Source: Haplodiscus bocki | Lineage: Eukaryota | Direction of reading: 5' to 3' | Assembly: GCA_965655095.1 (NCBI GenBank) | Contig: OZ296649.1 | Coordinates: 51,832,001-51,896,000, forward strand | DNA length: 64,000 nucleotides | Shown: positions 11,713 through 52,232 of the stretch, piece by piece | Layout: every line of letters begins with the position of its first letter | How positions within the stretch are numbered: the first letter of the stretch is position 1 | Translations under genes and position numbers: made by a program | The notes under the pieces: generated by a model | The model's database searches: none | What the model saw: the letters and a program-made list of their open reading frames with translations, nothing else | Told to the model about the DNA's origin: nothing

Positions 11713-11840
11713 GTAAGTAATTTTTTGTCACAACGAAGACAGCAATAACTCTTCGCATAACTATTTTTAGCCAAGCCTTAATATTACAATGGGTTTTTTA
11801 ATGTCGGAAGCAAAAATTATTACAGGGACGATGCTGAATT

Positions 11841-11906
11841 ATAAGTATAGGGATTCGAATGGTTTGCAACGGGTCCCAGGATTCATGCAATCATTCAACG
11901 GGTGAA
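11841..11906 (+). repeat. Left TIR of Polinton 1
   Basis: ATAAGTATAGGGATTCGAATGGTTTGCAACGGGTCCCAGGATTCATGCAATCATTCAACGGGTGAA; 58/66 identical to the reverse complement of 32837-32902. Confidence 0.95.
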
Positions 11907-11955
11907 TCCTAATCCTATTTTTCTCGAAAGGTTCCAATGAATTTTTTCATTTATA

Positions 11956-12267
11956 ATGGTCGGAATGAATAGCAAGCAGTTCTATGTTTTACTCGTTTTT
12001 TTCCCGTGTTTTTGTGGTCATCTCTCGTCATAGTTTTTTTAATTTGTGAGTTCTACGAAACTCAAAATACATCCAATTACGGTTTAAAATCAACAACAAT
12101 ATCACCTGTTTGGCCAACGAGTTCTTTTACACCTCGTAGTCAATATTACGACGAGTATTGCTTGAATGAAGGTGAATGTTTTTCTCTCCAGATGTGAATG
12201 TTGCGACCTGTAACTGCATTGAGTTTTGCGGTGGAGAGAGATAGAAGAAGTACATGTGGTACAATAG
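11956..12267 (+). pseudogene. Polinton 1 EGF-like growth factor gene (hydrophobic N-terminus, S/T linker, EGF domain), frameshifted
   Basis: (R<C)SQYYDEYCLNEGECFSL/DVNVATCNCIEFCGGER*KKYMWY. Cys1 reads CGT (one change from TGT) and Cys6 is a stop. Approximate spacing CX7CX5CX10CXCX8C. Confidence 0.85.
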
Positions 12268-15200
12268 AATTTTGGATTCTACGTTGACGTTTCAAGTTTT
12301 CTTCAGATATGACTGCAAAGAAAGATCGTTTGTTTTGTTCTATCGCTGATTTGCGAGATTTAGAGAACGAAACTTCAACTGTGTTTGACGTCTATTCAAG
12401 AGAAATGATAATTCAGTTTAGGAATTATGTTTTTGCCTTTGTTATCTGATTGCTCCAGAATACAGTCGAAGGCTTCTAATGAACAAACTTTCGTACCAAA
12501 ATTTTGGTTTATTTTACAAGTGTTCAAAATCTTACAGGCTTACAACTATTCTCCTTGAGTCCTCAAGGTTATTGGCAGATTTTTATTTTCTGATTAGTTC
12601 AACTGATGAAGATACATGTTTTCATCAACCCGCTAGAATGAATGCGGTGGAAGCGTTTATTTTGGTTTTACGGTTCAAGAGTGTTTATCATAAGGAATGC
12701 ACTGCGCTCAATTGTTGGTTCATTTTTCTACAGTTTTCTTTTCTCAGCAGTTGAAATGTCTCTCCTAATACTTGATAGGTTTTGGAACTCTTCTTCAATA
12801 CAAACCAGTTTGATAAACTGTCGGAATTGCATTTCAGACCATCGGCAAAGGAATCCTTATGTTTATAGGACGGTTACAGTTTGATTCAAATAGCTGTCGC
12901 CTGATTCTGTCTGAAATTTGTCTTCTCGGCCTTCTTCCACATCGGAAGTTATTCGGGGTTGGGTGATGAACATATGTCTTGAAAAGCAAAAATCAAGGTT
13001 CGCCAAACGGTCCTGCTAGGCACCAGTCATTTTGATTTGCATTTATGATCCAGCAGTGCACTCAAGTCATTCCTTTCGTAGACCACAGCTTGTTTTGTCT
13101 CAAAAAGTTTCCAAAAATTCTGATTGGTTGGGCAAACGATGCAGCGCTTAATCCTTTTGTGTATTCTGAAAGCTGCTTGCGAATTGTTGACCAATAACGA
13201 TTAAATTTTGGAAATCGAAAGTTGTCAACCCAACACAATCACTCTTTGATGAATCACTCGAGAACTCAGAACTGTATATCCCGCTTGTTTTGTTAGGTTG
13301 CAATGCTAACTCACCAATCGGTAGCTATGGAACTGGAAGGCTTTTATTGGTAAACATCTTTTTATTGTTCAAAAAATATCTGTTCGTCACAAAGAACTTG
13401 CATGGTTTGAGTTGCGACTCGGGTTTTTACGACTAAAATTTTCTACTCTGTTATCTCACCAGTCTCGAGTTACGTTTCCTAAATAAAGTCGTGCGCTCCA
13501 AAGGATTGGATAAGTGTAACTTTCTACGAAATTTCTCTCCTCACATTTTTGATCCAAACCAATACAACTGTCCTGAAGCTTCAGAGTTCTCGCAAACCCC
13601 ATTTGTGTGTCAGAGTCACCTAGGGTCAGGACCGCGTGGGCTTTAGGTTATTTGCGATATTGTCGACGAAAGGCGCGCAGCCCTGCCTGTCTACTGTCGG
13701 TGAGCGTGGTCCAACTCCTTTGCGGCCCGTTCGTCCTCGCACTCGCTCCGCTGTGCTCCACTCCGACTGAGTGCGATGACTTATGGAGGCCCACTAGTCA
13801 GTCGGCTGTACTTATAGGTTGCTGCAACTTTTATTTTTGTTGAAATGTTACGATGTAGCCCAATCCAAGCGCTCTGTCTCTTTTCGTTCAGGCTGAACGT
13901 CAGTGTTCTAAATTCACCAAAGCAATCACAAATCACCACACGACAAATTGATTTGAAGTTATGAGTAAAGGTACCGAGCAACAACAAAATTCCAAGTCCA
14001 GTGTTTTCTTTCAATTAGGCAACTTTGTTGTCATTCTTAGGATCCCGTGGGGATGTCTAAACGGTAACAAGAGCGTCATCTTTAATGGTTTGTCGACCCA
14101 ATGCATGGCAGATGCGTTCCGCTTTCGTTCGCTTACACGCGGGTGAGAAACGTTGTCGGATTGCGTTCATAAACTGGAGCCCTTTTACCCATTTATGTTG
14201 ATACGCTTTCCTTACAACAGCGGAACCGAATTCAAAGGATGACATTGATTTTTTGAGTCTGGAACTTTGCAACCGTTCGTCGTCTCCTTTGCCCTAGGGT
14301 CAATTGGAACGGGCTCACCGACTTATCGGAGTGTCTATATAAAACAACAAATAACAGTTCTGTAACTTCACTGAAGCGTACAAGTTCCCCACGAAACGTA
14401 ACATAACAAGTAGTCATGTTTGAGCACAAGATTTAGAATTGAAGGAAGATTCTAAAAACCATGTATTCAACTGCCTTAACCACGTTTTGTTAAGGTTGCA
14501 TAACGCCCTCTTGGTCAGAAGTCACATGAAAGTGGTCATCGTTAACTTGTTTCATTGGCCTCGTTCAAAAAAAACATCGCATAGGTTTGGGACTAATTCG
14601 TTTTCCTATAAAAATGAATGTAGGACAATTTACCTCAAACAAGAAAATGAATTATCTAAACCACGTGTAATGGTTGGCTGGGCCCAACTTCTACGTATTA
14701 CGTGTCCGTAGTAGATAAAATAGTTTGAATGAGCAGATTTTTTGCGGCATATCTTTGAAATTCATGCCCTCATTACTGAAAATTGAAATGGCAACATTTA
14801 CCCAAATGATGAAACTTTTGGTCCGACTGAAGATTTTGTGACAACTAGTACGAAAGAAAAATCTGATGACGCATCTCCGCAACCTGCAGCTAGCGATGTT
14901 ACTGTGTATGCAAATATTTTAACTTAGAGACATTCACGTTTTGAGTCGCCAATTATTTGATCCACTGGTGAAAAAAGTTTTGACTTTCGGACAAAATGTG
15001 AGCTAAAAGTTGTATTTCTCCATGAAAGGCCCCGCCTGATCGATACATGAAGCACAAATACGCATGGCAGAAATAACACCTGATTCGATAGCATGTTTTA
15101 GAGGAGCGTCAAAGTGTTGACAGTTTCCATCTAAAGAGTTGAAGACTCTCAATAAAGGCCTTCAAAACCGGTGTGAAATTTTTTTTCGAGAAAAACACAG

Positions 15201-16675
15201 ATCGAGTCTTGGTGGGAAACAGTGAGTCATTACTTTGGAAGCACACGAAACGCACTTGATTAAAAAATGGGATTAGAAGATTAAGCTTGACGTTCAAACC
15301 ACAAAATTTGTTTTCCAAGCACAGAGCTGATGTAGCGGGAAGTAAACAGCATTGCGCCACTGGTTTACTTGTGAACGTTTGTCGCAGTTCAATGTAGAAT
15401 TGCAGAAATGTGGCTGCAGTAAGTAGAATCAGCAATAAATTTTGAGTTGATCTCTAGAGTTTTAAAAAGAAATCAAGTTAATATGTCACACGAAAATCTA
15501 CACGACTGACTGAGGAGATATAGATATAAACGAAGTACCTATGTCCAAACATAAATTCACAAATTTGTCTGTCGGGGACCAATTTTTGGACAATGAAAAC
15601 TGTTATCATGATTCTGCGATTTTTTAAACATCATTGTTTCCAACAAAAGCAAGCTTACTGGGGAAAAGATTGACTGATTTTCACGATTGTCACGACAAAA
15701 TAAAGTGCAACGTAAAATTCATCACGAAGCGAGACTCTCAATGTCGGTTGGCACCTTTAAGGTTTCGTTTATTGACATACAATCATGTCATCTATGGACG
15801 CATACAAACGGAACCTAAATCTTTTTTGCGTTGATTCAAAACCGAAGAAGAATGCAAATTAAATGTATCGCATACTCCAGAATTAGAGTGAAAAATTGAG
15901 AAAGAGCACGAAAAAATACGAAAAATTAACATATGGCTTTAATTGAGCTGAAGAGCAAGTGGGACCTACTTCTTTAGGCTTTTGCCGGACACGATTTCAG
16001 AAAAATCAAAAGCTGAAAAATGAATTCCCGAAAACAACTTGTGTTGCCTTCAAAAAAACTTTTTTGAACAAGTTAATTGCCCCAATATTTTGGCAAAAGT
16101 GATCAAACTTCTTACTGAAGAAAAATCGTCAAAAAGTTTTTTGACAAAAAGCAGCTACAGAGACCATGTGCTTCACTTGCTAGCGCTCAATTAAACTTTG
16201 GACGGAAAATTCAAGAGATAGCTCAGCTTTTGTAAACTTTTTGCCGAAACTTCTGTGAAAATTGTCGAAAAGCCCGAAATGCGAAAAGTTGAAAAGTATT
16301 GACGCAATCAAATATCTTGCCACGGAACGCAGGTGTTTAGCTCACTTCATGACTAACCGTCAAAAACAATTTATTCAAGAGATCTTTGACCGTAACGGAA
16401 AATATTTTCGAAAAAGTGACAGAATCAGGTCCAAAAATTCAAAATTCTCAATGAAAAACAACTTTGTAGCCAAAATACCAGCAGGAACGGTTGCTTGTAT
16501 CATGGATTCAGGGCCGCATGCTAAAATTAGCCAAATGTAATGTTAGTTTTCGAGATCATGCTTGTGACACAATGTATGTGTTACTAAAGGTCTCGGCACG
16601 GGGCCCCTACCCCGGCCTCGTAATGTAAATTGGGCGAAACCCCGAACCAACAAGGTCCTTGTCTTCGAGACCACT

Positions 16676-17199
16676 GTGCTGGGGAAAAAGCGAATTTGTT
16701 TTCCAATTGGCTTTGTTAATCTCAACAGTTTTGTCATGTGTGCGGCAGTGAAAGACAAAGATAACCTCGATCTCACTTTGTCCCAGACTTTAATCAAAAC
16801 AGTTTCAGCGAACAGCCTCGAGCGGCAGAAGAGTGACTGCGACACATTTTCTATTGATTTACTGAAACAAGAATATAAAATAGTGGGAGGACATAAATTG
16901 CTGCGGAAGACTCTGATTAATTCATCAGTTGGCAAGTACTATTCTTTGCAAGTAAGTGCCACTTCGATCAACGTTTTTCACAACTTTTTTTGTAAATCAA
17001 AGTGGCAAACCAACGCTTGAAACAACTTCTCAGAAGTATCAAACCGTTGACTTTTCACCTACAACGCGAACCCATCATCTTCCCGAACAAAGAGGCTCCT
17101 CGTATTTCCAAGCAGATAGCTGAGGAGTTCAGTGTACGTGACGATTTTATCGAAGTTGCCTTTTTTTCCAACTGGGGGCCGCAGAAAATCTCAGTTTAG
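16676..17199 (+). pseudogene. Polinton 1 conserved hypothetical (EYKxxGG motif)
   Basis: FSIDLLKQEYKIVGG matches FLSID...LIKEEYKLLGG at the same position in element 2. Confidence 0.65.
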
Positions 17200-17612: not shown

Positions 17613-18307
17613 ACAAAGTAATTCTCCAAGCGATCTCCTCTTCATGTCTCTTGTTGGACCTGGTGGGTCTGGTAAACTGCAGTTATTTTTTTAATGCTCT
17701 CATCGGAGACGACGTTTCATCCTGAATTTGGTGAAAACTTTTATTTTTATAAGGAGTGTCAACCCCTATTTGATGAGATGTCTATAAAGTTGGACGTTGA
17801 CTTTGTGCCATGTCTCGAATTTGATATGATCAAGAAACTTGCTAATTGTTTTTTGGTTTTTGACGCTGCTTGCGAGGAAATACACCTGGAGAAAGATTTT
17901 GTCAAAATTGCAGATGCTGGCCGACATAAGAAAATAGGTTACATCTTTGTTAAACATAACTTGTTCCATCAAAGCAAGTGGTCACGCACTATAGATCTAA
18001 ATACAACGCACATTGTTTTGTTCAAATCACCACGCGACAAGCAATAGGTTGGACATTTTGGGAGACAGTTGAAGAAAGACAGTTAATTCATTGGATTTTC
18101 ATATCAAAAGGGATTACTGAGCCCTACAGTCATTTTGTGAGCGACTTAAATCAGGAAACTATTGACTCGCTTCGTTTCTGTTCTGATACTGTTGGGCCTG
18201 GTCCAACTACTTTTTTTATACCGTCTAATTTTGCAAAAGAAACGCCGCTGACAAATGAACGAGAAAAACGCGCATGCACTGAGGTGCTGGCAACGCAGAA
18301 AAACTAA
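17609..18307 (+). pseudogene. Polinton 1 A32/FtsK-like packaging ATPase
   Basis: Walker A SLVGPGGSGK, Walker B CFLVFDAACEE, AGRHKKIGYIFVKHNLFHQSKWSRTIDLNTTHIVLFKSPRD. Frameshifts and stops present. Confidence 0.93.
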
Positions 18308-19168: not shown

Positions 19169-20045
19169 TTGGAAAACTTTCCGATCAACGTTTTTTCCGA
19201 TCAACGTAATCTCAAGAGCGTTTATTGGAAAGGACCAGCTGCATTTGGCAGCGTGAGAAATCTCCAAAAAGGAACTGAACTCACACGAAAAAACTACGTG
19301 AATTTCCTATCGAGGAAAGATGCGCATACAAATTATAGACAATATCGTCGCAGATTCCCTCGGCTAAAAGTTTTTGCTTTTGATATTGATGAAATATGGT
19401 CCGTCGATGTTGCTGAAGTTGAGAAGCTCGTGAGATACAAGAACGATGTTAAGTACTTCCTCGTTACCGTGGATGTTTCCTTCCGCAAGTCGAGAGTTCT
19501 CCCAATGTGAACCAAAACTGCAGAAGAAACTGCCAAAACTTTTGGAAAGATGATTGTGAAAATTAAACCACAAAAGATTAGGCCTGACAAAGAAACCGAA
19601 TGTAAAGGCGCTTTCCTTCTCCTTTGCCAGAACAATAACATTGACACTTACTCTACTCACAGTGAAACCAAGTCAGCGTTTGCAGAGAGGATTACTCGCT
19701 CTCTCAAAACTTATATGAACACCTCGAAAACAAGTGGTCGTATCATGACATTAACGAGCTGCTGTCCTTTGTACAAACAATGAACTCAAGGGTAAACAGA
19801 ATGACAGGGTTAGCGCCTAACAAGTTTCAAAAAACACGTCTTCAAGTTAGTTTCATTAACTGCTGAAGAGTCGAGTCAACTGGTCAGGAAATTCAGGAAA
19901 GCCAAGTTTAAAATTGGTAGTACAGTCCGAATTGCTAATGAAGATCTCCCTTTCAGAAAAGGTTACAAACAGAGTTTCCCTGACGAAGTGTTTACAATTG
20001 TGAAGATTCCAACCTTCAACCCACCCACTCATTCTGTGGTTAACG
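19169..20045 (+). pseudogene. Polinton 1 retroviral-like (rve) integrase
   Basis: PAAFGSV, IDEIWSVDV, YFLVTVDVS, DKETEC, KSAFAERITRSLK, FRKGYKQSF.DEVFTI. Confidence 0.93.
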
Positions 20046-20049
20046 CTAA

Positions 20050-20890
20050 AGTAAATTTGTTGTTTACTTTGAGTCAACAGGTTCAATCGACTTTCACAAA
20101 ATTAACAAAAGTGTCTTTTTGCAATCTACTTCCAGAACATTTGACTCTGGAAGGTGATTGGCGGGTAGCCCTTGCTGAGATCATTTTCCATTGAGGAATT
20201 GAAAATGTCACAAAAGATCTCCTTATATCCACACCGAAAACTCCCTACGATAACTCATTGATTTTGAATTCATAATCTGCAATACAACGCGAAGACTGGT
20301 CGAATAATGGTGTATTCAATGATGTCGATTACGAAAGCGTTACGGAAGTTTTGAGTCATTTGCATTCTGCAAGGAATGACAAGGGGCTTTTTCTGACGTC
20401 AACTGTTGAAAATAATTTTGTAGAGATCAAGTTTCGAGAGGGCTATGGTCTTAGCCTACTTGACCGCTCCCTTTTTGATGTGCTAGGATTCAAGGGAGTG
20501 CCAGACACCAACTGGGGTGGGTTTTTTATTGGATGCAACGAAAAAGTGGTGAAGCAACATCAGCCTGTCATTAGTAATTACCCACCAGATAAGACCGCTG
20601 GAACAGATATTTTTCTCGTAAGCTCGGACATTATCGAACATCAGCATATAGCTGGAATCAAGGCGCCATTTCTTCGACTTGTTGACACAGAAGGAAAGTT
20701 ATCAGACGGTGAGTTAGCAATTACTTCTAGTACAATCCACAAAGTTTTTACAGAACTACAATTCAGGAAACTAGTGCGCGAGACAGTTCGCGAAATTTTC
20801 ATTGAGTTAGTAGATATAACCGGTCATTACGTTTTTTTCGTCGGCACAAGCAGAGTGCTCGTAACTCTAAAATTTGAAAAAATATCAAAT
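20050..20890 (+). pseudogene. Polinton 1 minor capsid protein (penton, PX)
   Basis: FCNLLPEHLTLEGDWRVALAEI at the N-terminus, then FLVSSDIIEHQHIAGIKAPFLR...IFIEL.D.TG..V.F...VTLKF. Confidence 0.85.
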
Positions 20891-21256: not shown

Positions 21257-22548
21257 ATGTTGCCTAATATCTTACCTAATGAAGCTTCACATTGCTCTCG
21301 GGGTATTTTTGAACGTCCTCCTTTGATTTTTACGTTTGACACTTCATTCGAACAAAAAGTTGGTCCTGCCTACGCGCAAAATGGTCCCATCGTGGAGTTT
21401 GAGGTGGTTGGGGATCGCACCAACTTCATCGATTGGCAAAACATTAACCTTGAAGTCAAATGTGAAATTCTGAAATCCAGTGGTAATAAAATTAATTACG
21501 ATGAAGCGAATACTGATTCACCATGTTTTGTTAACAACACTCTTCATTCTTTGTTCTCTGAAAATGCTTTTACTGCAAATGGTATCAAAATTTCTTCTGG
21601 TAATGGTCTTTAGGCTCTGAAAGTTTTCGTTGAAACCGAAATTCGCACAACAAGGAAGCTAAAGAAACTTTGGAGATGCCAGGGTTTTTCTTACGAAAAG
21701 GAACCTACCGATTGTACTACTACTATTTTTACGGAGCGAACTGTGGAAACAAAGGACTCAAACCGTGTATCCTTTTTGGGAAAAGTTGCATTGAATTTTT
21801 TTCATGTGATAAGCATCTCATCAGTGGTGTCAATCTTTGCATCTCCTTTCTCAGGAATCGTCCCGATTACTGTCTGATTCAGGATGTTGAAGCTAAAGAG
21901 TACAAGGTTGATATTACCCCAGCGAATTTGTTTGTTCGCAAAATGATTGTCAGTGACCCCGTATATTCTACCATTGAGACCACACTCACCAAAAACTTCG
22001 GCTCTTTTTTGATATACCGAAATTATACCAAAAACATTCCTTATGTCCACCGGAAGTAAAAAATGGGATCACGAAGACATTTTCAACCGTGAAACTATCC
22101 GAAGGTTGGCTGTTGCAATGACTACCAATAAAGCTTTCCTTGGTAGCAAACGAGAAAATCCATACCACTTCCAGAAGTTGGGCTGATAGTGTCACAGTAT
22201 ACCGAAATGGTTACATATGTGCTGGAACTCCTTTACAGACAGACGATGACAAACAGCTTTGTTTTAATTCCCTTGAAGCTTTAGCTTTTAAACAGCACGG
22301 ACACGGTTGCTTTTGACAACTTTCCCAATCACTACGTTTTGGTTTTCGATTTGACAAGTACCCAGGACGCCTGTCATGACTACCTTTATCCTGAACTCCC
22401 AAACGGCTCTATTTCCTTTATTCTGCGTTTCTCAACTCAGCTCACGGACACTATAGAGCTGGCCTTTCTCGGTGAGAACACATCAACAATAAACATTGAA
22501 TCATATCGGAAGGTTTCAAAGAAAATTCATCCATGCAGTAAAGTTTAG
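21257..22548 (+). pseudogene. Polinton 1 double jelly-roll major capsid protein (PY/hexon-like)
   Basis: IFERPP, GPIVEFEVVGDRTNFIDWQNINLEVK, FVNNTLHSLFS, ANLFVRKM, NPYHFQK, VFDLTSTQD. Confidence 0.9.
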
Positions 22549-22556
22549 TCGAAAAA

Positions 22557-22984
22557 ATGATTGGTGAATTGGAATTGTGGCGACTTATCATTAAATGTAA
22601 TCATTTAAAGTTTAGTTTCATTGGTGTCTGTGCTGCGGTCAATTTTCCCCTTTCGCTTGACGAGAACACTTTCGTGATAGTGAATTCAGACAATTCAAGC
22701 AAAGAGGGGACAAATTGACTACTTTTCTGAAATAGAGATGGAGATGTTTCCTTTAGCAATCCTTTGGGGTTAAAGCTTTACACTTACACAAAGTGTGTTC
22801 CCGCCTAGTTTATGTCGACTATGGCATTCTTGAAGTTATGAATCATCAGCTCCTAAAACCTACTTCAAACTTATGCGGACTCTACTCTATTTTTATTGCT
22901 CTTCACGTTTTCAGTGCATAATATCCTGTGATACCGACAGTTGATGAAAATCAGTTACTTTGCATTATGAAGCATTTGATTTGA
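22557..22984 (+). pseudogene. Polinton 1 adenain-like cysteine maturation protease
   Basis: FIGVCAAVNFP, VIVNSDNSSKEGT(N*) at the HW position, HQLLKPTSNLCGLYSI. Confidence 0.88.
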
Positions 22985-23089: not shown

Positions 23090-23790
23090 TTAAACAATGT
23101 TTCTATCCTGTTGTAGATATTTTGATGTAAGAAATCTCTTAATCCATCGTGTTTTTTGCCAAACTTTAGATTTATCGTATAATTTGCCAAACACGAAAAT
23201 TATAGCATCACACTTTATTATACCGTAACCGTCGGCGAAAATGTCTATGACGTTACACAGATTCGCGGCTTCAGGGCTTTCTAGGATGTTACATGAGCGA
23301 CTCATCGAAACTGTTGAAAGTTCAGTTTTTTGGAGGGCAACATCATTTGTAGATCTCACTCTTGGGATTTTGTTTCGATTCTTCTGACCCATTTTGCGGT
23401 TATATTCCACTGGTTATCTGAGCCTCTGCATTGTTCGACCGTTGAGCGTCACGTTGCTTGAGTTATGCAATAGTTGAAAGTGTGTTGAATGGAAACACGC
23501 CACGTCATATCCTTTTTCCTTAGAACTTTTCTTCGAACCAACTTCTAGTAGCAATTGATAATGCGTTTCTCTAACACTGCAGCAGTTATCGTTTTTTCTT
23601 GAATGTTTTGCAAAGGCATAATTCAGTGTACTGGCAAAATCCGCGCCTAGTTGTGGTTGTCGATTATAAATGAAGTACTGGAAATTTGTGCAAAATTTCG
23701 TGAAATTTCCGGAGTTTGTTCTTACATTGCTTCAACCATTCTGGCACTGAAATAAAAAGGGAGTAAGACGGCCGGCTGGAAGTGGCATAA
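23090..23790 (-). pseudogene. Polinton 1 unidentified minus-strand ORF remnant
   Basis: ORF fragment 23090-23410 plus upstream fragments. No motif recognised. Confidence 0.3.
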
Positions 23791-23919: not shown

Positions 23920-24600
23920 GGGAATCACGATTTTCCGTTGGAGGATTTTTTCTCAGTGCCGATAAACTTCGTATAGGAACCCTTCTATGTTTCAGAAAAT
24001 TTCTGGTGTCGAAAAATGTTAGGGATAAGTGAGGTGGCGGGTATCACGATTTTCCGTCAAAATTGTTTATCATAGTACCGAATCATTTTGTAGAGGAACC
24101 CTTCTGTGTTTCAGAAAATTCCAGGTTTAGGAAAATTTTATGCCCAAGAGGGGAGTATCACTATTTTCTATGGGAAATTTGTTGTCTCACAGTACCGAAA
24201 AACTTTGTAGCTCGTAGGGGAACTCTTCTGTGTTTCAGAAACTTTCTGGTTTCAAAAAATTTCATGAATGAAAGGGGGGAGGGAGGGAGGGAGGGATGGA
24301 GTATCAAAGTTTTCCGTCGAATATTTTTTTGTCTCACGGGGCCGAAAATTTCGTAGAGGAACCCTTTAGTGTTTCACTAGTTTCGGGTATCGAAAAATGT
24401 TCGCGATAAGTCATGAAAATCTTTGGCGGGACAGACTCGAACCCCCAACCTGCTTCAGAGCCCTGTTGTCTTAACCCTACTGCTGTCATTTATTTTTCAA
24501 TGAAAAGAAATGGCAATTTTGGTCTGAAGAAAGAAAAAACGACCCCTCTGAATGAATAATTTCTTCTTGCTTATTACATATGCGATGAAAAATAAAACAA
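23920..24600. repeat. Probable host repeat nested in Polinton 1: about four ~120-bp degenerate units plus a tRNA-like segment
   Basis: Recurrent ATCACGATTTTCC...GTAGAGGAACCCTTCTGTGTTTCAGAAAA. Minus-strand B-box GGTTCGAGTC near 24435. Not seen in element 2. Confidence 0.75.
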
Positions 24601-26360: not shown

Positions 26361-29300
26361 GTGAAAAAAAACAACTTGTCCGATCTCGTTATAAGATATA
26401 AACCTAACAATTCTGCTCTTAAGGCAACTGTTGAATCTTCCTTCCTAGAATATAGGGATCATTCTGATTTCCTACGATTCATGGTCGAAGTGAAGCCGCT
26501 CCTGAAAGAAATTGTTAATGGAAGCGTCAATACAGAACTTCGAAAAGTTCATCTTTCCGCTAGTTTTGTAGTCGAAAAACCCTCTGTTGATGAAACTGAC
26601 GAAAATGAGTTAACTCTTTGCGCCAACTCGAAAATGGAAACTGTTTTCTTTGGTCTTTCAGATGAATACTTCTCACGAATGCTTGATCAGATGTTGTCAA
26701 GTTTATTCACCTTCACTTCTCTTGCCAGTGGGTGGATCTTGGAGAAAATTAATGGAGTTGAAGTGCGATTAGTTTCTCATTTGCCAATCAAGGGATCGTC
26801 CTACTTAGCTCTACCCTCAGCCCTACAAAATTTGAATTATCTCCTCAACATCAGAAATCACGATGACAATAATTGCTTTTTATTGTTTCATGGCTGCTTG
26901 GCACTTCAAGTATCAACCGCGTCTCATGAGTTTTGTTTGCTGGGGTTTGCGCGCAAGCCCTGAAACATATAAACCCTGAAATCTTCTTGCTCATCAGCCG
27001 GTTGGAGAGTTTGTGATGCCCATGCGTTTCAAAGAGATACCAAGATTCGGAAAATTGAACAAATTCAGGCGAATGTTTTTCAGTTCCAAAACAGTTGCTT
27101 GATTCCTCTTCTCCTTTGAAAAAGCAAAGGTTGTCGGTTTTTAATGGATCTTATTCTCGCTGATGGACACACTCATCATTTATTTTTATTAAAGATCTCA
27201 AGTTTTATGTTAGTAATTTAGACAGCAAGTTGCCCGCTCCATCAGTCGAATCTGCCGAAATTGTTTTCACTTTTACCAAAGCCACATTGAAAGATGTTTC
27301 GAATATGAGGCGGCTGCAAATAAAATGCCGAATGATGGAAACATTTTTTTGAATTTGAACAATTATCAGTCGAAATGGTTTGCGCCTTTCGTGATTCACT
27401 TTGATTTTGAATCCTTGATAAAGCTTTCGGACTCTCGTCAAAACAAGGTCAATTATAGCTCAACAGAGGTTATAGAAGTTAACCAGCTTGTGGTTTTTGT
27501 TTGGTAGTTATTGAACTCGACAATCCAAAATTGGCGTTCGTAAAGATTGAGAGATCGAAAAACTCTATGCAAACATTTGTAGATGTTCTGGAAAAATTTG
27601 CCAAAGATTTTTATGAGAAAAAACAACAGCATAGAGACTTCAGAGGTTCTGATTCATTGGTTGATGGCTCATTTTGCTCGCGGTGAGTTTTCAATGGCAG
27701 AATTAGACAAAGTTTTGGACCACGACATTTCACCGGCAAGTTTCTGGCCTATGAGCATAGGAAATGCAACTTGAAAAGTACGACAGTTAAGTATGTCACG
27801 ATATTGGCTCGCAATTTGTCGAGCTGTGATCCTCACCATATCTGCAAAAATCTAACACTGTTTTTGAACGATTCCACATTTCAAGTCATCCCTGTGACTG
27901 TTGAGAAATATTTATCGCTATCTGTAGGAGTTAAAGTTGCGAGCTATGTCGACTCTTGAGGCGTTGAAAAAAATTTTTACGAATACCTTAAATTCATCGA
28001 CTCCTGCCGGTTCATGCCTCCGTCAATCGATAAATTAGTTCTTTATCTACTTAAAGAAAGTTTCAACATTTTGGATCAATTTTTCTTCGGACAATGAATC
28101 CGACCGAGAACTTTTTTTTATCAAAGAAGTTTCCATCCTTACAGTTACTACGATACTCATGAAAAGTTTTTGCAAACGCGATTGCCTGATCTTCAATACT
28201 GGACTAACTCTCTGCACGGGGGACTAGTGTTTATCACCTCCGACAATCTTCTCGCGCAAAAAGTTCGACACGTTTAAATGTGAGAACCTTGGAGATTATC
28301 ATAACCTTTACCTAATGACAGATGCCCTCTTGTTGGCTTGTGTTTTGGAGTCTTTCCGCAAAATGACTTATTCAACTTATGGAATGGACAGTGCACATTA
28401 TTACACGCGTTCTCAGCTCTCTGGCTATGCATTTCGTATTTTTAGTATTGCTTATATGTGGAGCTTCTGACAGATCGAGGACATCTAGAGTTTGCCGAAT
28501 ATGTAATCAGGGGTTGAGTTGCTTCTGTTTCCTCCAAACGTCTTGCCGAAGTGAATAACAATTTGCTGTCAACTTTTGACGAAATGAAAGCTAAAACGTT
28601 CGGCCTAATGGTAGACGCTAGCAACTTATATGATGGTGTCTTGGAGAAGTTTCCTTTACCATTGAGATATTTTGAAATAGCTAGAGAACTGTTGTTGGAC
28701 CTAATCTTAAACACCTCAAATGTATCCTAATGGCTTTATCCTCGAAGTCGATTTAGAGTATCCCGATTCTCTGCATGATTTACACAAAGACTCCTCTAGC
28801 GCTGACAACAGAGAAAATTGATGTTGATATGCTCTGATGTCCAGTTGTCCCTTCTGGAAGAACATGGGCAAAAGCGAGTGTCCGTCAAAAACTTTGTGCA
28901 ACCATTGAATCAAAAGAAGGAACAAACTGTACACTACATCACCAGAAAGTTGTATGTGAACCTTCGAAAGAAAGTTTCTCAAGTTCATCGTATCTTGACT
29001 TTTACTCGAGAAAAACGGATGGAACCGTACATAACTCGGAATACCGAAATGCGTTCAAAATTTTCAAATAACTTTCAAGTGTCATTCCACAAACTGATGA
29101 ATACTTTTCGCTACAGAGAAACTCGAAAGCAAACGCAACCGAGTTAATATCAAGTTACTATGAACTCTAGAAGGAGTCCTGGAAAACTCGGGAAAAAACT
29201 AAATCCGTTAAAATTTTTGATGAAAATCTCGTCGCTGTTACTTGTCGGAAGGACTACATTTTCTGGGACAGTTCAAGCGTTGTCGGTGCTTGTGTTTTGG

Positions 29301-30245
29301 ACTTGCCAGAGTATCACATGTTCTACTTTCAATATGAGGTTAGTTTTTGTAATTGTTTTCAAAAAAATTGAACATTTAATCTCTCCTGAAATCAGTGATA
29401 TGTAATGTTTTTTTCGCGATCATTCCGGATTAGTGGTGTTCTTTTTCTTTATGGTTTTTTTGTTTCGGTTGGTGATTAAAGCTACATTTGATTGCTCCTC
29501 GCTTTCTTCTGACACTGATTCTCTGCTCTATGAGATACGCGGTGATAACCTCTACGAAAAAGTCATGGGAGACCATTCTTTGAAGCAACATATCGATTTT
29601 CGAAACTACCCTTTTATTTATCTTCTTTATTCCTTCACAAATATAATTTTGGCCATGAAATTCAAGGGTAAGATGTGTGGAATCGTTACTAATGAGTTTG
29701 CTGGTTTGAAAACGAAGATGTACTCTATACTGTATGAAGATAAGCGAAAAATGTCAGCCAATGGTGTTTGCCGCTTTGCTCAAACTTCCTTAACCCATCA
29801 AGTCTACAAAAACGTTTTCAACGAAGGAGGTGCCATGCGTTCAGATATTGTCAGAATAGGCGCTGTGAAACATGATCTCAAGAAAATCCAAACCAATAAA
29901 ATCTTAACTGCGTTCGATGATAAGAGATTCATTGTAGAAGATCGAATAAGTTGTCTGCCTTTTGGACATTTTGAAGTTCGTGATATCCCTGTGTTGAGAG
30001 CCGTTGCGGAGGAACATGACTGGGGAGAATTTAGTGAGCCGGAGGAAGAAACTTTAACGAACAATTCTAATATTTCATCTTCGAGCTGCTCAAGAATCAT
30101 CAGCGTTTTCTATGTCTCACCACCAGCAAGAGTTCCATCTTTAACGCATTCCGGTGTAGCGAAAGATTCGATCGGACTTGATGAACCTATCACCTTGTCT
30201 CTTTATTCAGATGATTTTTTTTTCACCCCCAGACTCTGGATTTAA
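26361..30245 (+). pseudogene. Polinton 1 protein-primed family B DNA polymerase with endonuclease VII/HNH-type insert
   Basis: GSSYLALP..NIRNHDDNNCF, ExoI PFVIHFDFES, VLDHD.FTG..HRKCNL, KFIDSCRFM, ExoIII YHNLYLMTDALLL, motif A VDASNLY, motif B KLMN, motif C SDTDSLLY, EFAGLKTKMYS, AFDDKRFI. Confidence 0.95.
29339..29471 (+). other. 133-bp insertion in pPolB, probable spliceosomal intron
   Basis: GAG|GTTAGT...T-rich tract...TTG|GTG. Removing it restores YFQYE-VIKATFD, colinear with SFH*K-VLRNAFD in element 2. Confidence 0.65.
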
Positions 30246-30574
30246 TCAACGTAACAATTTAGAAAATGAGTTGGTGGATTCGGCGGATTTGGACGAAGAT
30301 ACGAATGACAATTCTCAACCTAGGCCCGGGAATCCTTTCATTTTTGACGAAACGGAGGAAGTCAAAAGTTCATGGGAGAGTTTTTTTCTGATGCTGGTAC
30401 TTTAAACTATGGTTCACAGAAGGAATACCCCGCTCACCTTCTCTGTTTGAGCCTGTAATTAAACGCAGACGTGTCGTGATAAGTGATAAACTCTAGCGAC
30501 AGCCATTAGTTTTTTTCTGTGATCTTGCTGGTTTTCTGAGTCAGTTTTCCAGTATGTTGTTCTTTGTCTAACAA

Positions 30575-31150
30575 ATTGCTCGTGGAAAAAGCACCGTACG
30601 AAAATGTTGCCCAAAGCACCGTTAAAACTCGCTATCGAAAAAGACAGCTATCGAAATGCTGGTGGAGGAAGTACTGTGCAAAAGTGGTGTCCAAAACTCG
30701 TGTAAAAAATCGCTTGCGATAAACGACCGTATCGAAATGCTTGTCAAAAAAAGTATCGTGCAAAAAGGATGCTCAAAACACCGTTAAAAAATCGTTATCG
30801 AAAAAGAACCTAAACGAAATGCTCGTCAAAAAAGTACCGTACAAAAATGCTGCCCAAAACACTTGAAAAATCCCTATCGAACAGGAACGGTATCGAAATG
30901 CTCCTCAAAAATATCGTGCAAAAATGCTGCTCAAAACACCGTTCATAAGTCGCTATTGAAAAAGGGCCGTTTCGAAATGCTCGTCAAAAAACTATCAAGC
31001 GATAATACTGTCCAAAACACCGTTATAAACTCGTTATCAAAAAGAACCGTATCGAAATGCTCGTCAAAAAGTATCGTACAAAAATGCTGCCCAATAACAC
31101 CGTTTAAATCGCTATCGAAAAAGACCGTATCGAAATGCTCGTCAGAACTA
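30575..31150. repeat. Tandem array, ~80-bp unit, about 7 copies
   Basis: CGAAATGCT recurs at about 30652, 30733, 30815, 30894, 30973, 31053 and 31131. Confidence 0.92.
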
Positions 31151-31368: not shown

Positions 31369-31863
31369 TCAAATATTATTACAACACATAAGAAAAACCA
31401 AGTAATATAGTTTAAAATAAATGAGCTCACAGAGGGAATTGTTTAGCGCTTTAGCCATGTTTTCATGTTCTTGCTCATCACCTCTGATTGTGAGCAAACA
31501 GTCAGTGATGCCAATAAGATGTAGCATCTTCTTTGCCAGTGCATGACCCGGTGTGCCTGTCCTAGTGGGTGCTGGTTTGATGGTAAGTCTCAGTCCGCCG
31601 TGTCTACCTGAGACCGTTCTAGGCACTGTGGTCATATTCCGTACCGCCTGACATTTAAGAAACAATTTCATGTGAGATCAAACTTTGGATTTGGCGGCTT
31701 CCTACGCCCACTTGTGTGAGGGCTTCGTCACTCCAGCAAAGCCATACAATCCATCGCCGTCAGTCGCCCTGGCTATGGCACGATAGCGGACTCTGGGCTG
31801 ACAACCTCTATTCCTTTTGTTGTTGTACAACGGTCGCACTTTCAGCGTTTCCTCCACATTTTC
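31369..31863 (-). pseudogene. Divergent ribosomal protein uS5 (eukaryotic RPS2)-like gene inside Polinton 1
   Basis: EETLKVRPL...RVRYRAIARATDGDGLYGF and TTVPRTVSGRHGGLRLTIKPAPTRTGTPGHALAKKMLHLIGITDCLLTIRG..ENMAKA align with the RPS2 N- and C-domains. One frame, two internal stops. Confidence 0.85.
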
Positions 31864-31876
31864 CTATGACACAAGA

Positions 31877-32263
31877 TTATCTTTCAATATTTTCAAGGTA
31901 AAACTAGTTAGACGAAAAAAAAATGAATTTGAAAAGTGTGTACTAAAGTTATGATGTTAATTTTGTCAAGCTTGCGAAATGTTATGGGTTGATCGGATTT
32001 TAATAAAGTCTGTAGAATCGAAGAAAATTACTTACTGGTCTCACAATAGCATGGTCTTCTTCCTCTTTTGAGGGTGCTAATGAAGAGGAGGATGGCTCGA
32101 AATCGTCTTCTGACAGACTCGGGGCAAATGATGATCAACAGCATGGCTGGTTGTCGGTTTCATCGTGTGACTGGAGAATCATCAGTTCTGCCACCTCTCG
32201 GTCGTCCTGCTCTGAGTCTTTGATGGAGTACCGTTTACCGTTCAATCTCAACGCTACTTCCAT
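31877..32263 (-). pseudogene. Polinton 1 small acidic ORF, apparently two exons (32263-32036 and 31903-31877)
   Basis: CAAAATG start, 76 codons with one stop, then a GTAAGT donor and a 132-bp intron ending in a T-run and CTAACTAG. Confidence 0.45.
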
Positions 32264-32836
32264 TTTGTTGAATTGAGTGTTTAAAACTAGTTGAAGTTGG
32301 CTATATTGTTGGGGTTTTGCTGGAGACTGCGTGTACTGTTCGTATCGATATTTGTAGTGGAATGATTGTTTCGATTTTCGAAATTTATCTTTTTAATTCT
32401 GTTGCAAATTTCGTCATCCACTTGACGAGTTAGCAGCTTTCTTTGGTTTTTGTGGCCTATTTGCATCGTATTATCGTCTGTTTCTTTTCTATCATCTTCG
32501 AAGAATAAATGCCAAATAAAAGTCTGGCCTTGTCTAACTGAAACACATAACTTTTATTTTGAACACACGTTTTTTAACCCTACAATTATTGCAGTGTCAT
32601 AACTTTTTATCTCCCTCCTTATGTTGATAATGATGATTATGACAATAGCGGTCTTGAAATTGATAGTCTGAGCGTTGTCATGAGTTGTTTTGTAAATGCA
32701 GTTAGTGAAGTGGTGGTGGTGAACGGTTACATAACCCTAAAGTGGGTCACCTTGACTTCAATAATTGTGTTATGTAAACAAACGAACACTTGAGATCAAA
32801 GCAGTGAGACAACCTTTTCTTGTCTGGGGGGATTAT

Positions 32837-32902
32837 TTCACGCGTTGAAGGATTGTATGAATCCTGGGACCCGTTGCAAACCATACAAATCCCTATTCTA
32901 CT
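32837..32902 (-). repeat. Right TIR of Polinton 1
   Basis: Reverse complement begins AGTAGAATAGGGATTTGTATGGTTTGCAACGGGTCCCAGG, a Polinton-type 5'-AG end. Followed by the TSD TGAATT. Confidence 0.95.
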
Positions 32903-35900
32903 TGAATTTCTTTGGCAAGACCACCAAACTATCTCGCGAATACTTCTACCTCATTTCGTTTAGTTTGGATATGTGTTGTCTGGCATCATTTTTAACTGCA
33001 GCTTTGAACAATACTTAACGCTGAAGGGGTACAATGTAATGTAAAGGCAATCGATTAGGGAAGTTTTTGAAATTTCATGTATAATTTCGCGTTCATTCTC
33101 GAGGTTTTAAATGTCACATTATTGAAAATTTCAAGCAAATTTTCAAAGGTACTAAACGATTTTTGAAAGCGGGGTTATGTTCCAAAAAATATATGACTAT
33201 TCAGTTAGAGTGCATTTTTATCAGAAAAGATCCGGACTCCATTCTGTGAAAAATATTTCGGACAGCTCCGTTTTTTCGCCGATACTCAAAAAGAACCAAA
33301 AGTCATGACTAATGGTCGGAGCAGAAGTTTTCAGATTTTTCTATAGTTCATAATGTTGTTGTTTGGAAACTCTAAGTTTGTTATAACGTAGTTGAAAATT
33401 TTGATAATTGTATGTATTATGATAGAAATTTCAAATTATAAGCCATCTTTTTCTTATTTAAGTGCTCCAAACTGCATCATTGCTTGAACTTTCCTGATTT
33501 TCTCGAACTAGTGATTGCACCCCAAAACATCTAGCTGGCATATATTTGCACAGCCAGAGAAAGTCAAAAGGTTTTGAGAATCAATTTTATATCCTATTGT
33601 AATGTATGTGTCTGTATTTTTTGATTGAGTTGTCGATAAAATTTCCTGTTTCTGATTGTTTTTTTTTATCAAAACTTCTCACGGCTTTGGGTAGGCTATG
33701 GAGGGTCTGCTGAACGGAATTTGGTGATGTTCATGTTTTTCAAGATAATAATATGCAGGTTTATAATTAACCAAATCTAAATTCTGTATATACTTGGTCC
33801 TGATTTTTTTCTTTCTGAAAAGTAAAAAACTCTTGTAATCGAAATTCAATTTTTAGGGACTTTTGTTACTGCTTTTTTCTATAGTAAAGGTTGCTAGTCT
33901 AGAAGATGAAAGTTGTCAGAAACTATTTTTCCAATATAAAAGTCTGAATCTTTCCTGTCAGTGCTGTAGTCTATTGCTGTTGGTTTGCAATGACGGAGTA
34001 ACAACGACAGTGGATGTGGAGCGCTTGCATATTGTTAGTCGTTCTTGACTCTGTTTCCGGACAGTTGAGCATCGTATCCGTTGCTCGCCTGCAACAATAA
34101 TTTTTGTCGGAGCTTTACCTGAATAGCACAGCTTTACCTGAGTATCACAGCGGCGAACCGGAGGTTAGCGAGGCTGGCAAAAGAAATTTCACCAGTTCTT
34201 CGAAAACTCGGAACAGCAAGACCCATCAATACCAGAACAAGCCCGTCGAAAATCATGCGAAACTTTCCGAAATTATCGAAGCCTGTATATACCTCGCTTA
34301 AACCAAAAATTGCCGAACTTTGTCAAAAAAACGTAACTGGGATTTGTGCCAGTAACTGCAAAGTCCTTTCTTCAGAGACTGCGAAAATGATATGAAAATT
34401 AAACAAATTTGTGACTTTTACATATTAGGTCTTTAGCTGGACTTCGAAAACGACACCGAATGATGGCGCCCTAGGGCTCGCAGATGCTCCCATTTTGCTC
34501 AGAAAAAAATTGTTATACAAGGATGAAACTTGAGGATTTTGTTCAAAGCAGTTGTACGTGCGTTTTTATCCTATCTGTCACAATTGTATACAAAAGACTG
34601 CTCTGAAAGCAAAAGAAGGGGAAAAACTCTGAAAAATAGCACACTTCGGCAGTTTTTGGCTGAATCTGGAGCACCACGAGCATCATTGTGACAAAATTTT
34701 CAAAATCATGGGAAATTTCCCAATTTTTACACTTTTTGAAAATTTGAATGAATCACTCGTTGATTTGGTTGACGAAAGAGCAGAAAAAACGTAGCTATTT
34801 TTGCCGATTAAAAAGGCTAAGAATAACAATCTAAAGCAGATTTTTAAACTTTTGCAGATAAGTCTTGAATATATCCTCTCGTATTGGTCTTTAGGAACTT
34901 GTAACAAAAAAGCACTTAAACGATTGAGATCCCCAATAATGAACTCGTTGTTTCGAGCTGTTTCTGTGCTTCTGTCTCCTATTCGTTTGGTACACTTGCT
35001 AGAAAATCGGCAGAGAAAGCTCAGGGGATAAAACTGTATTCAGCCTAACGAAGCAGTTTAACACGTTGTTCTCTATTACTAGAACTAAATATTCGAACAT
35101 GTATCGTTGTTTTCCTGGATCTTTTATTGTTTGCCGTCGTAATTTAAATTTCGAAAAGAAAATTTTTCCCTCAGTAGGCTGATTTTGTTCTCCGGATTCT
35201 GCCATTTCGGAGTGAACTTGTTCACGTTTTGAAAAAAAATGCCAAAAGGTTCCTATGGACTCGCGGAATGGATTTTTGACAATCGCCGCGAAAACTTTTC
35301 CCTGAAAGTCCCGAAAGGTTTTCGATCCAAGTGCGAGAAAAATTAAATATATATTTTTTTTCAAATGCTTCTCTGGACACTTAGAATGCAGTTTTGAAAA
35401 CCCTTCCTAAAATTTTTCGCCCAAATCTGAAAATTTTTCACTCAAAGTGGAAAAGATTTGGGAATTTATAATTTAGAAAAGTTTTCTCTCAGAACTTTCC
35501 TGTGGACTAGTAAAATGCAGTTTTAACTACGCTGCGGAAAATTTCTCGTTCGAACGTCAAAAATTGTTTGCTTAATGTCAGAAAAAATTCATGAAATTAG
35601 TATTTTTTTCCGCGAAATATTTTTTGTTGCATTTTTTTTGTAGTGTTGACAACTCACCAAAAATTGTTGCCCGGAAGTCCGAATAAAATTCTAAACTTTT
35701 GATGTTTCAAAAAGAGACTGGAAATGTTCTTCCGGACTCTTAGAAATAAATTTAGCGAATACCAATTTTTGTTTAAAATTGTACTCATTGTAATAAGAGG
35801 AGGCCTCCTCGCTCCCTAGGGTGACTATGTTCTTCTTGAAATTTGCAATAATTTCATTTTAGAGCCCTTTCTTGCCCACCGTCGACGGAAAATATCGCAG

Positions 35901-45302: not shown

Positions 45303-45565
45303 TGTTTTGACTTGATTTGAACTGCACTAACGGCTTTTTTGCTTTTCCAAGTCATTTTTCTCGGAAGACTACTGTTTGAATTCGGCCTTCTAGTGCTCAT
45401 TCCAAAACCCGCATTTTAGAGAATTTGCTGACAGTGATGAATACTTTTCAATTCAATCGCTTCGATGTTCGAGCTCGCCCCGGGGGGGGGGTGCTATTTT
45501 CAATTTGTACTTTTTAGTATGGGCAACTTGAGGCTCATTTTAATCGTAATTTTTTCCAGGAAGAT

Positions 45566-46591
45566 ATGGCAGAGGGACCGGCACCAGCATTGCCTGCTTC
45601 GTCAACATCTGATACTCCTCCCCCTGCTTACAGTGAAAGTAATTTCATCACTGCAAAGTTTAATGAAAAGAAAATCAAGTTTTCTGTCAACTTGGTTGAA
45701 GCTTCTAGAAGCAGTGTTGATTTTCTTCGTTTGGTCAGCAGGTATCCTCAACTCTATGAAAGACCATTGATCAACTTGGCCATTTATCGGTATGAGAAAT
45801 TTTGGCTCCCCCTAGCTGCCAAAGCAGGGCCTGCTGTCACCAAGTGGGTTGCTCCCCTTGACATCCAGTGGGCGTGGCATGTACACATGTTGGCACCGGT
45901 CTATTACGAAAAAGACTGCATGGCTCTTGTGGGTTGTATTGTAGATCATGAGCTGACCCCAATGAATGAGTACTTTAAAGCTTTGTCTGTCGCGAAGAAA
46001 GTATGGGAGCGAGAATACCCGAACGAGGCGTTTGAGATAGACTTGAAAACGGCTGCCACAACGGGTGCCAAAAGCGAAGAAGTGGCTTCTTTCGAGAGTA
46101 AATTTTCTTACGACATAGCTGGTGCTTCTTCCAGGCAAAAAACATTTTTTTATCAAGTTTCTCTACCCCATTACCTCGACCGAGCTTTCATTGAGAAGGC
46201 TGTCCAGAGGTATAAAAAGTTTTGCTTCCTCAAAAGTCACAACCCCAACACATTTTTAGTGCCATGCTACGATTTTGACGTGGTCTGGCATGCACATCAA
46301 GAACACCCTTTGAAATATAAAGCCGACACTGAAAAGCTGATTGGCAAACTTTTGAATCACGACGATTCCGTCAACAACCGCAATACTGGGTCTAAGTTAA
46401 TGAAGGCTGATGCACTTACCCGTGAAATGTGGTCGAAAGTATTCAACGAAAATTTCAACATTAACGGTGCCATGTTCAGGGGTGACATTCCTAGTGGCAT
46501 TAACACAATGTCAAAATTGGAACTTCTCAAAGTTGGATTTGCGGAAACGCCTTTCAGAATCACTCATCTCAAATTGACAACCAATACAGAG
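45566..46591 (+). CDS. DUF1399 / glycine-rich-domain-containing protein (GRDP-like), first coding exon
   Basis: AIYRYEKFWLPL, APLDIQWAWHVHMLAP, RQKTFFYQVSLPH, AVQRYKKF, FLVPCYDFDVVWHAHQEHP, LNHDDSVNNR, GAMFRG. Donor GAG|gttgga. Confidence 0.9.
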
Positions 46592-46658
46592 GTTGGATAT
46601 CAAACGCTTCTCTTTGTCTTTCGGTTTTGTGTGGTTACTCCCAACTGTTTTGTTTCAG

Positions 46659-46823
46659 GTATATAACACTAAAAAATTGAAAATATGTGCCAATTATGGT
46701 GGCAAAAAGATTTCTATATTGTTCGATCCTGGGCAAATAGAGTGGTCGGAAAATAAAAACCAAGTGACTTCTGGAACAAACAGCTTTGTTTTGGACAGCT
46801 CTCTGATTCACAAATTAGACATC
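46659..46823 (+). CDS. GRDP-like gene, second coding exon (further exons not found in window)
   Basis: tgtttcag acceptor, 55 open codons in phase 0, gttagt donor. Confidence 0.7.
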
Positions 46824-52017: not shown

Positions 52018-52232
52018 GACTAACCCAAAAAACTCGACGAGCTGGGAGGCGATGACCTAGTTGAATTTGCCCAATATGTTTCCTCAATGATGTCACAGTC
52101 AGTTCAGTATAGAATAAAACTTCTACTATTTGATGACTTTATTACTTGTATTTTGTGAACCTATTCTGTTCAGAGATTATTCAAATATAAAACACTTCTC
52201 AGGTTTAAATCTTTCAGAATTTTTGAAAAAAT

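Follow-up and report, generated by a model that had tools for sequence, protein, structure and literature searches.

A trimmed, multi-allelic uS5 (RPS2) core carried as a terminal gene by Polintons of Haplodiscus bocki: a putative host-modulating mimic

What would a Polinton do with the gene of a core protein of the small ribosomal subunit? The question is raised by a minus-strand frame related to uS5 (RPS2) in the 64,000-nt stretch of the Haplodiscus bocki genome analyzed here (contig OZ296649.1, positions 51,832,001 to 51,896,000; hereafter the window), which was originally predicted to be a long-resident, exapted viral gene and not a processed pseudogene. No poly(A) stands by the gene (longest A-run of 4 within 400 nt), blastn shows no similarity to the host RPS2 coding region, and the frame, instead of occurring in this copy only, has at least 147 matches in the 1.5-Gb assembly (150 candidates scored, as in each S5 search), with a fixed place in many Polinton copies. 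Since the refuting signs are absent on every point and coding constraint is evident (see below), the reading as a long-resident, exapted viral gene stands. The main feature of the locus had gone unseen, namely that the S5 gene is a multi-allelic, exchangeable cassette. These Polintons captured a uS5 gene, trimmed it, fixed it in a terminal position, kept it under constraint and exchange its alleles.

The window element is a decayed Polinton of 21,062 bp (11841-32902; Table 1), bounded by a perfect 6-bp target-site duplication (TSD), TGAATT. Its terminal inverted repeat (TIR) arms (11844-11906/32837-32899) are 90% complementary over 63 nt, and counting reproduced the difference of 8 in 66 positions reported at first. 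The hallmarks of Polinton/Maverick elements are present in the window element and its intact relatives taken together: TIRs with (AGT)2 ends, a 6-bp TSD, protein-primed PolB, a retroviral-type integrase and an A32-like ATPase. Judged against the proteins of an intact relative, the ATPase, integrase, two putative capsid, putative protease and polymerase genes are all broken by stops or frameshifts. In that relative, the Pfam profiles DNA_pol_B_2 and rve match above cut-off and Pox_A32 just under it. The ORFs of the putative capsid, minor capsid and protease fit a Polinton in size and order in intact elements; searches of Pfam, PHROGs and PDB gave these three ORFs no support, and AlphaFold returned a pLDDT of 31. 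The polymerase region of intact elements consists consistently of two ORFs (L039:978-4412 and 4467-5474; L042:6835-9885 and 5787-6794), possibly reflecting a small intron or a true split, and the second, of 336 aa (PolC), presumably carries a polymerase-like motif. Elsewhere in the window, an imperfect repeat cluster of ~120-bp units (23920-24411) separates the protease-side from the polymerase-side modules, a 382-aa open frame with a GRDP-like domain (45518-46666, plus strand; Pfam PF07173, E 6.5e-45) lies outside both Polintons, and a second Polinton, more decayed and with the same gene order, occupies 51238-61573, its far end beyond view; no S5 was detected in the part of it within the window.

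Table 1. Features of the window Polinton (positions in the window; "intact" refers to ORFs of intact elements)
Feature	Position	Strand	Basis
Left 6-bp target-site duplication	11835..11840	.	Identical hexamer flanks both element ends
Left terminal inverted repeat	11841..11912	+	Repeat and TSD analysis
Small EGF-like accessory gene, broken remnant, end opposite S5	12100..12270	+	Cysteine pattern by eye; no Pfam match
Conserved Polinton ORF, presumably exonuclease-like, interrupted by about 3 kb	13371..16833	+	tblastn with intact copy's protein (pieces 13371-13595 and 16666-16833)
Packaging ATPase, frameshifted	17629..18301	+	48-69% to intact ORF; that ORF: Pox_A32 E 2.7e-4
Retroviral-type integrase, with stops	19196..20050	+	53% to intact ORF; that ORF: rve E 3e-9
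Putative minor capsid protein	20060..20881	+	56% to intact ORF; name presumed from position
Putative major capsid protein, frameshifted	21257..22557	+	53-74% to intact 439-aa ORF; name presumed from position and a motif
Putative maturation protease, frameshifted	22590..22978	+	48-50% to intact ORF; name presumed from position
Conserved ORF, unknown family	23189..23704	-	37% to intact 224-aa ORF
Polymerase region	26412..30360	+	42-76% to intact ORFs; main intact ORF: DNA_pol_B_2 E 3e-15
79-bp tandem repeat, 7.1 copies, inner side of S5 gene	30577..31144	+	Repeat analysis
uS5/RPS2-derived coding exon, both S5 domains, two internal stops	31369..31863	-	Pfam, PDB, alignment
Predicted 172-nt GT-AG intron, phase 0	31864..32035	-	Consensus donor and acceptor
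Predicted first exon, 76 codons, acidic, Ser-rich, one internal stop	32036..32263	-	Homologous stretch in L057, L090, L093
Right terminal inverted repeat	32830..32902	-	Repeat and TSD analysis
Right 6-bp target-site duplication	32903..32908	.	Matches left hexamer

The window S5 copy is itself a dead gene, because its exon of 165 codons contains stops at codons 54 and 62; it has no start codon and opens at a splice acceptor, and its S5 homology stops near 31420. The frame spans both RPS2 domains as claimed, with PDB uS5 chains aligning over residues 4-147 (89 distinct PDB sequences at E ≤ 0.001, best E 1.4e-9). The identity to RPS2, put at 35-40% by eye, proved lower, 27.7% over the aligned core against the genome's own RPS2. 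Of the two Pfam domains expected, Ribosomal_S5_C is recognized on the window copy (E 1.4e-10), whereas the N-terminal Ribosomal_S5 domain is recognized only on intact copies. All six intact ORFs scanned match both domains, Ribosomal_S5_C in six of six and the dsRBD-like N-terminal domain above the Pfam cut-off in five and below it in one. For one intact allele AlphaFold, which may recall the uS5 fold, gave a model with pLDDT 84, and the top 50 Foldseek matches of this model are all ribosomal entries containing uS5 (best TMq 0.81, rabbit uS5, rmsd 1.8). A W..TVP insert in the alignment marks the protein as the cytosolic eukaryotic/archaeal type.

Only the host gene, at 265.9 bits, passes the cut-off of the RPS2 equivalog profile TIGR01020 (181.65 bits); the best Polinton copy reaches 112.7 bits, and the matches of Polinton copies begin at profile position ~45-55. 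The RG-rich N-terminal extension with its chaperone site and the C-terminal extension, both present in host RPS2, are absent in all alleles, which span the globular core from start to end and cross the position of the host intron without a break. By its fold the Polinton protein belongs with uS5, but it qualifies neither as a functional RPS2 nor as a processed pseudogene. Alleles a, b and d have their own ATG start. Alleles c, e and probably f have a predicted short exon that contains an ATG and is followed by a GTAAGT donor, some 200-240 nt upstream; its reading frame agrees with that of the acceptor in c and e. Within the window subfamily, donor and acceptor of the predicted intron are kept in L057, L091 and L093, and the predicted first exon of the window bears no relation to the N-terminus of host RPS2. 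Contigs of four public runs from one study, which behave as DNA and are silent on expression, show no GT-AG joint over the allele-c locus.

What is kept within the core is selective. Across 18 alleles or fragments, 63% of Gly/Pro and 68% of hydrophobic-class positions are conserved, but 21% of polar ones, and 9 of the 17 Lys/Arg residues conserved in RPS2 are basic in at most 20% of alleles. All 18 carry a net charge of +3 to +21 (pI 8.9-11.9). A loop glycine is invariant in 14 of 14 aligned copies, and the sole invariant basic residue is an arginine at the place of the middle R in the RTRFK motif, its neighbours being basic in only 53-59% of alleles. According to the text of PMC10377357, this motif of yeast Rps2 is needed for Pse1-dependent import; the invariant arginine may instead be retained for RNA binding or folding.

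The linkage of the gene to Polintons was examined from two sides. We fetched 69 ten-kb stretches around S5-like matches, leaving out most members of tandem arrays and including four picked as possible host pseudogenes. Other copies lie inside Polintons at 62 of these places (a Polinton core gene at 58, a TIR only at 4), and not demonstrably at the remaining seven, which carry neither marker; among these, a piece in L117 shares 62% identity with host RPS2, and L115 matches over a long stretch at 29%. From the other side, PolC has at least 122 matches (120 of 7358 candidates scored), hand-merged into 105 loci and compared by match coordinates with 127 S5 places, so that all counts are lower bounds. 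An S5 match lies within 8 kb downstream on the opposite strand at no fewer than 57 of the 105 loci, and on the same strand at none. Linkage is seen at 48 of 68 loci with at least 60% PolC identity, at 9 of 20 of the rest, and at 0 of 17 in a PolC group set apart as a distinct polymerase type; the 48 loci lacking an S5 match, these 17 included, were judged from coordinates only and do not imply absence of the gene. The S5 gene is oriented head-inward near the element end. Two elements were seen end to end, with AGTAGT ends, perfect TSDs, open core genes and intact S5 ORFs ~0.6-0.8 kb from the end; in intact elements these ORFs measure 144-164 aa, and young elements of four alleles carry them.

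Shorter and amplified forms of the S5-bearing end also occur. Many of the matches fall in four tandem arrays of this end (C1:78.23-78.30 Mb, C7:38.83-38.90 Mb, C2:36.55-36.58 Mb and C6:2.24-2.31 Mb), with units of about 1.7 to 3.7 kb in tens of copies; many members share stops, which suggests amplification after insertion. A 2.4-kb deletion derivative (L066:5740-8144) has lost everything but the two ends; it has both TIRs and a 6-bp TSD of its own, and it carries an intact S5 allele whose protein is identical to that of three other copies. Over the TIR region at L045:2028-2219 the summed contig depth is several hundred times that of the flank, which suggests that very many short elements share this end. 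At the end opposite S5, an EGF-like ORF adjoins the left TIR in both backbone families (L040, L044, L100 and, as a remnant, the window); its intact counterpart at L040:441-731 (plus strand) encodes 96 aa with a hydrophobic N-terminal stretch and a six-cysteine EGF-like C-terminus (Pfam EGF E 0.004-0.006, below cut-off). It is reminiscent of poxvirus growth factors, and by its sequence would fit a picture of host-directed genes at both termini.

The S5 gene exists as at least eight alleles (a-h) with about 32-53% protein identity, and these sit on backbones that are nearly the same. Elements L047 and L059 share 99% of their PolC DNA and 55% of their S5 DNA, L039 and L042 share 97% and 48%, respectively, and the genes adjoining the swapped alleles are 93-99% identical. 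Between L039 and L042, alignments of 95-97% cover the polymerase and core regions and one of 89% covers the last 279 bp, with no blastn alignment in between (L039 ~6750/6930-8100). The cassette thus delimited measures about 1.2-1.35 kb and runs from the tandem-repeat zone to the terminal segment (~280 bp); its flanking non-coding part is exchanged along with the gene, and no partner ORF was found in it. The tandem-repeat zone, which marks the inner border, is in intact elements a Lys/Arg-rich repeat ORF, and the contigs of the four public runs end loosely at this same border of allele c. This Lys/Arg/Ala-rich ORF (L039:5654-6502) is of variable length (283-713 aa) and convergent with S5, and may encode a core protein that condenses DNA. 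The window backbone family, 57-58% identical to the first, has alleles of its own, the window and L091 sharing 80% in the adjacent ORF and 53% in S5. Because divergent alleles stand on near-identical backbones, recombination between elements is required, and we infer that one crossover within the repeats, close to an end of the linear genome, would suffice.

Such divergence raises the question whether the protein sequence matters at all to the element. By pairwise Nei-Gojobori estimates, the only method used, the window copy and its nearest copy (L057, about 80% identical in DNA) differ with dS 0.376 and dN 0.135, a ratio of 0.36 (Fisher p 4e-4), in line with what was proposed at the outset. 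Between alleles, pS is saturated at 0.64-0.85, with pN at 0.31-0.55. A built-in neutral control comes from five old allele-d copies: dN/dS is 0.76-1.06 in nine of ten pairs and 0.60 in the tenth, and the identities at codon positions 1, 2 and 3 are 83/82/83 among them versus 52/58/30 between alleles, the latter counted on a protein alignment and hence biased towards positions 1 and 2. The low ratio between nearest copies, taken with the drift in old copies, therefore indicates that the gene is constrained while elements are active and decays after insertion. The high divergence of the alleles could reflect age plus weak constraint.

As to the origin of the gene, the one locus that passes the RPS2 cut-off (C10) encodes an RG-rich N-terminus and is interrupted by an intron close to the 3' end, and its closest named relative is Convolutriloba macropyga uS5, in a cluster with a representative 90% identical, which makes an acoel host probable. 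The alleles are 27-46% identical to this host protein, and blastn aligns no fetched locus with the host coding DNA. In a 66-row tree, the 20 rows of Polinton type group together as a single, long-branched clade (100/98). The clade stands next to eukaryotic RPS2 (99/87) in this tree, whose rows include one bacterial outgroup and no MRPS5 sequence. Free trees place the clade outside all sampled RPS2s, the AU test does not reject its nesting with host RPS2 (p-AU 0.206), and long-branch attraction is likely.

Related proteins are not confined to this assembly. A profile search of 1.84 billion representatives, together with word searches, found Polinton-type alleles from ENA records only (one also in NCBI), and five odd uS5-like proteins from other records join the Polinton clade (99/96). 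Some of these alleles are missing from this genome. Protein P0303 has nine members, six of them of 151 aa, on contigs of up to 1.2 Mb, and its best match in this genome is 41-43%; that of P0026 is 39-40%. The uS5-like proteins P0089, P0127, P0031, P0121 and P0153 of other ENA records, highly divergent and partly multi-copy, group with the Polinton clade; P0089 and P0127 have no match in this genome at E ≤ 1e-12, and the nearest to P0031 and P0121 is L083 (41-42%), which lies in a Polinton. From these sequences, S5 is likely carried by Polintons of other species. No fold match was found in BFVD at E ≤ 0.001, no relative in IMG/VR scans with two single proteins, which reach close relatives only, and no match in PHROGs for three alleles; the best features matches in the ESM Atlas (0.89) are to generic S5 clusters and serve as a lead only.

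A trimmed, diverging S5 gene swapped among near-identical elements suggests that a host gene was captured and put to use against either the host or competing elements. Our preferred reading, held tentatively and at somewhat under even chances, is that the captured uS5 core is a putative host-modulating mimic under balancing selection. An ancestral Polinton captured the globular core of cytosolic uS5, most likely from an intron-less copy, both eukaryotic tails being dropped, and the gene became fixed as an accessory gene at the right end, from where it reads inward. Its protein stays under coding constraint while its surface diversifies, and whole ~1.3-kb cassettes are swapped between backbones, presumably by recombination at their two borders, the tandem-repeat zone and the ~280-bp terminal segment. 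Expressed early and imported into the nucleus, the mimic of free uS5 might occupy a host factor or a pre-40S/RNA surface that normally binds uS5, and so might blunt host control on the element, and host adaptation to whichever alleles are common would perhaps keep many of them in existence. In its most specific form, which we put forward more guardedly, a Polinton lineage of acoel-like worms would use the uS5 mimic as a variable "specificity cassette". Balancing selection would maintain a library of deeply diverged alleles, these would move from one genome end to another, and each would act on the translation or ribosome-surveillance machinery of the host.

Candidate targets for such a mimic exist among the non-ribosomal partners of uS5, for which the text of PMC10216425 names PDCD2, PDCD2L, PRMT3 and ZNF277; the fly protein Zfrp8/PDCD2 binds RpS2 and affects transposon transcripts, as described in PMC4726551. 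Since the main anchor of Tsr4/PDCD2 on uS5 is the N-terminal ~42 residues (PMC10216425, in the text available), and this anchor is missing in the Polinton proteins, a role as a Tsr4/PDCD2 decoy is weakened.

Might the protein instead be built into the 40S subunit, in place of or beside host uS5, and favour the mRNAs of the element by biasing initiation or fidelity at the mRNA entry channel? The complete two-domain fold seen in the model, the invariance of the loop glycine and of the import-motif arginine, the location of uS5 along the entry channel with its effects on fidelity and start-codon choice (PMC10216425, text in part) and the entry of phage bS21 and bL12 into ribosomes (PMC6375957, likewise) would all suit this idea. 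However, uS5 contacts eS21, uS2, uS8, uS4, uS3 and 18S rRNA according to the former source, and it is about 80% conserved across animals, quite unlike alleles so distant from each other and from the host; virus-encoded ribosomal proteins tend to be exchangeable ones, as discussed in PMC6375957, whereas uS5 is a stable component. With both RPS2 tails, the chaperone site and most conserved basic residues lost, a decoy or RNA-binding role is favoured over ribosome incorporation, which we consider unlikely, and less likely than the host-modulating mimic.

A second possibility is that the S5 fold serves as a general RNA or nucleic-acid binder, for example by shielding transcripts from small-RNA silencing or by packing the virion core together with the basic repeat protein. 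The dsRBD-like N-domain is kept, the net charge is positive throughout, and the convergent neighbour is the Lys/Arg-rich repeat ORF, with 118 K+R of 283 residues. Yet specific basic positions are unconserved, and the swapping of alleles beside nearly unchanged genes would go unexplained, which leaves us rather doubtful of this role.

Deeply diverged alleles on one backbone would also be expected under negative frequency-dependent selection between elements, if the cassette were a self/non-self module of Polinton lineages, acting in superinfection exclusion or as selfish toxin-like cargo with allele-bound specificity; the co-exchange of the non-coding flank agrees with this, and nematode Maverick cargo genes have been tied to a toxin-antidote element (10.1101/2022.07.12.499685, as far as its accessible text goes). 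Considering that the cassette holds no partner ORF that we could find, and that all alleles keep a host-like fold and have gained no enzymatic site, we regard this explanation as improbable. Lastly, a passenger fragment of host RPS2, transduplicated or retro-copied and decaying neutrally within the element, could claim the stops in the window copy and many others, the A10 runs within 400 nt downstream in alleles a and b, the absence of the host 3' intron and the compatibility of a host-lineage donor with the AU test, but it is very improbable and largely refuted by the intact ORFs in young elements of four alleles, the low dN/dS and saturated third positions against the neutral internal control, the conserved splice signals and the fixed position.

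The host-modulating mimic would have a precedent in the eIF2alpha mimics of poxviruses (K3L) and ranaviruses (vIF2alpha), whose target, PKR, is known. They share with S5 a translation protein cut to its core domain, low identity to the host, fast evolution, a terminal location and tandem amplification, and differ in that the source of S5 is a ribosomal protein and its target putative; the Polinton protein would act in a mode akin to K3L and not as a spare ribosomal part. Adenovirus E1A/E4 genes are spliced, lineage-specific and host-directed, and on a linear genome with protein-primed replication they are transcribed from the ends towards the interior; their likeness to Polinton S5 is positional only, with no relation in sequence or fold.

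Ribosomal protein genes in eukaryotic viruses are called rare in the text seen of PMC11499249 and 10.1101/2025.06.17.660233, where the cases given include eL40 and eS31/S27a in FloV-SA2 and ChrysoHV, two giant viruses described as the first and second such isolates, as well as an S30 gene that a retrovirus carries in antisense. Like Polinton S5, those of FloV-SA2 and ChrysoHV are ribosomal protein genes of eukaryotic DNA viruses, but they encode small proteins and belong to Nucleocytoviricota, whereas the Polinton gene encodes a trimmed core small-subunit protein ~28-40% identical to that of the host, is multi-allelic and resides in an integrating animal Polinton of ~19-21 kb. Phages, too, have captured ribosomal protein genes (bS21, bL12, bL9, HPF) that are under purifying selection; these are exchangeable proteins that enter ribosomes, with pN/pS of about 0.1, in contrast to the weaker constraint and far greater divergence of Polinton S5 (PMC6375957, whose main text does not contain the term uS5). 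Vertebrate (PMC8097293) and nematode (10.1101/2022.07.12.499685) Mavericks share with the S5 Polintons the accessory ORFs that flank the core, (AGT)2 ends and 6-bp TSDs. Intact vertebrate Mavericks are reported intronless in the former, whereas several S5 alleles have a predicted intron, and the accessible text of neither source describes exchangeable allele cassettes. In the available text of the Polinton papers PMC10748475, PMC8097293 and PMC11161782 "ribosom" has no match, and we found no report of uS5 in a Polinton or eukaryotic virus, although supplements or Repbase/Dfam annotations could mention one. Host-gene capture by a Polinton is real here, and it is unusual in its source and in its multi-allelic cassette.

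Most accessory genes of Polintons are unannotated. S5 has a known fold and known host partners, and the effects of Polintons on host cells therefore become directly testable through it; its alleles, moreover, are a natural mutational scan of the uS5 surfaces that matter outside the ribosome. A core protein of the small subunit belongs to the regular gene set of an animal Polinton family, and its gene, with many old alleles exchanged among young backbones, resembles an immune-conflict locus in its behaviour. If our preferred reading is true, a small animal DNA virus would have turned a core ribosomal protein into an arms-race effector, possibly across several host species.
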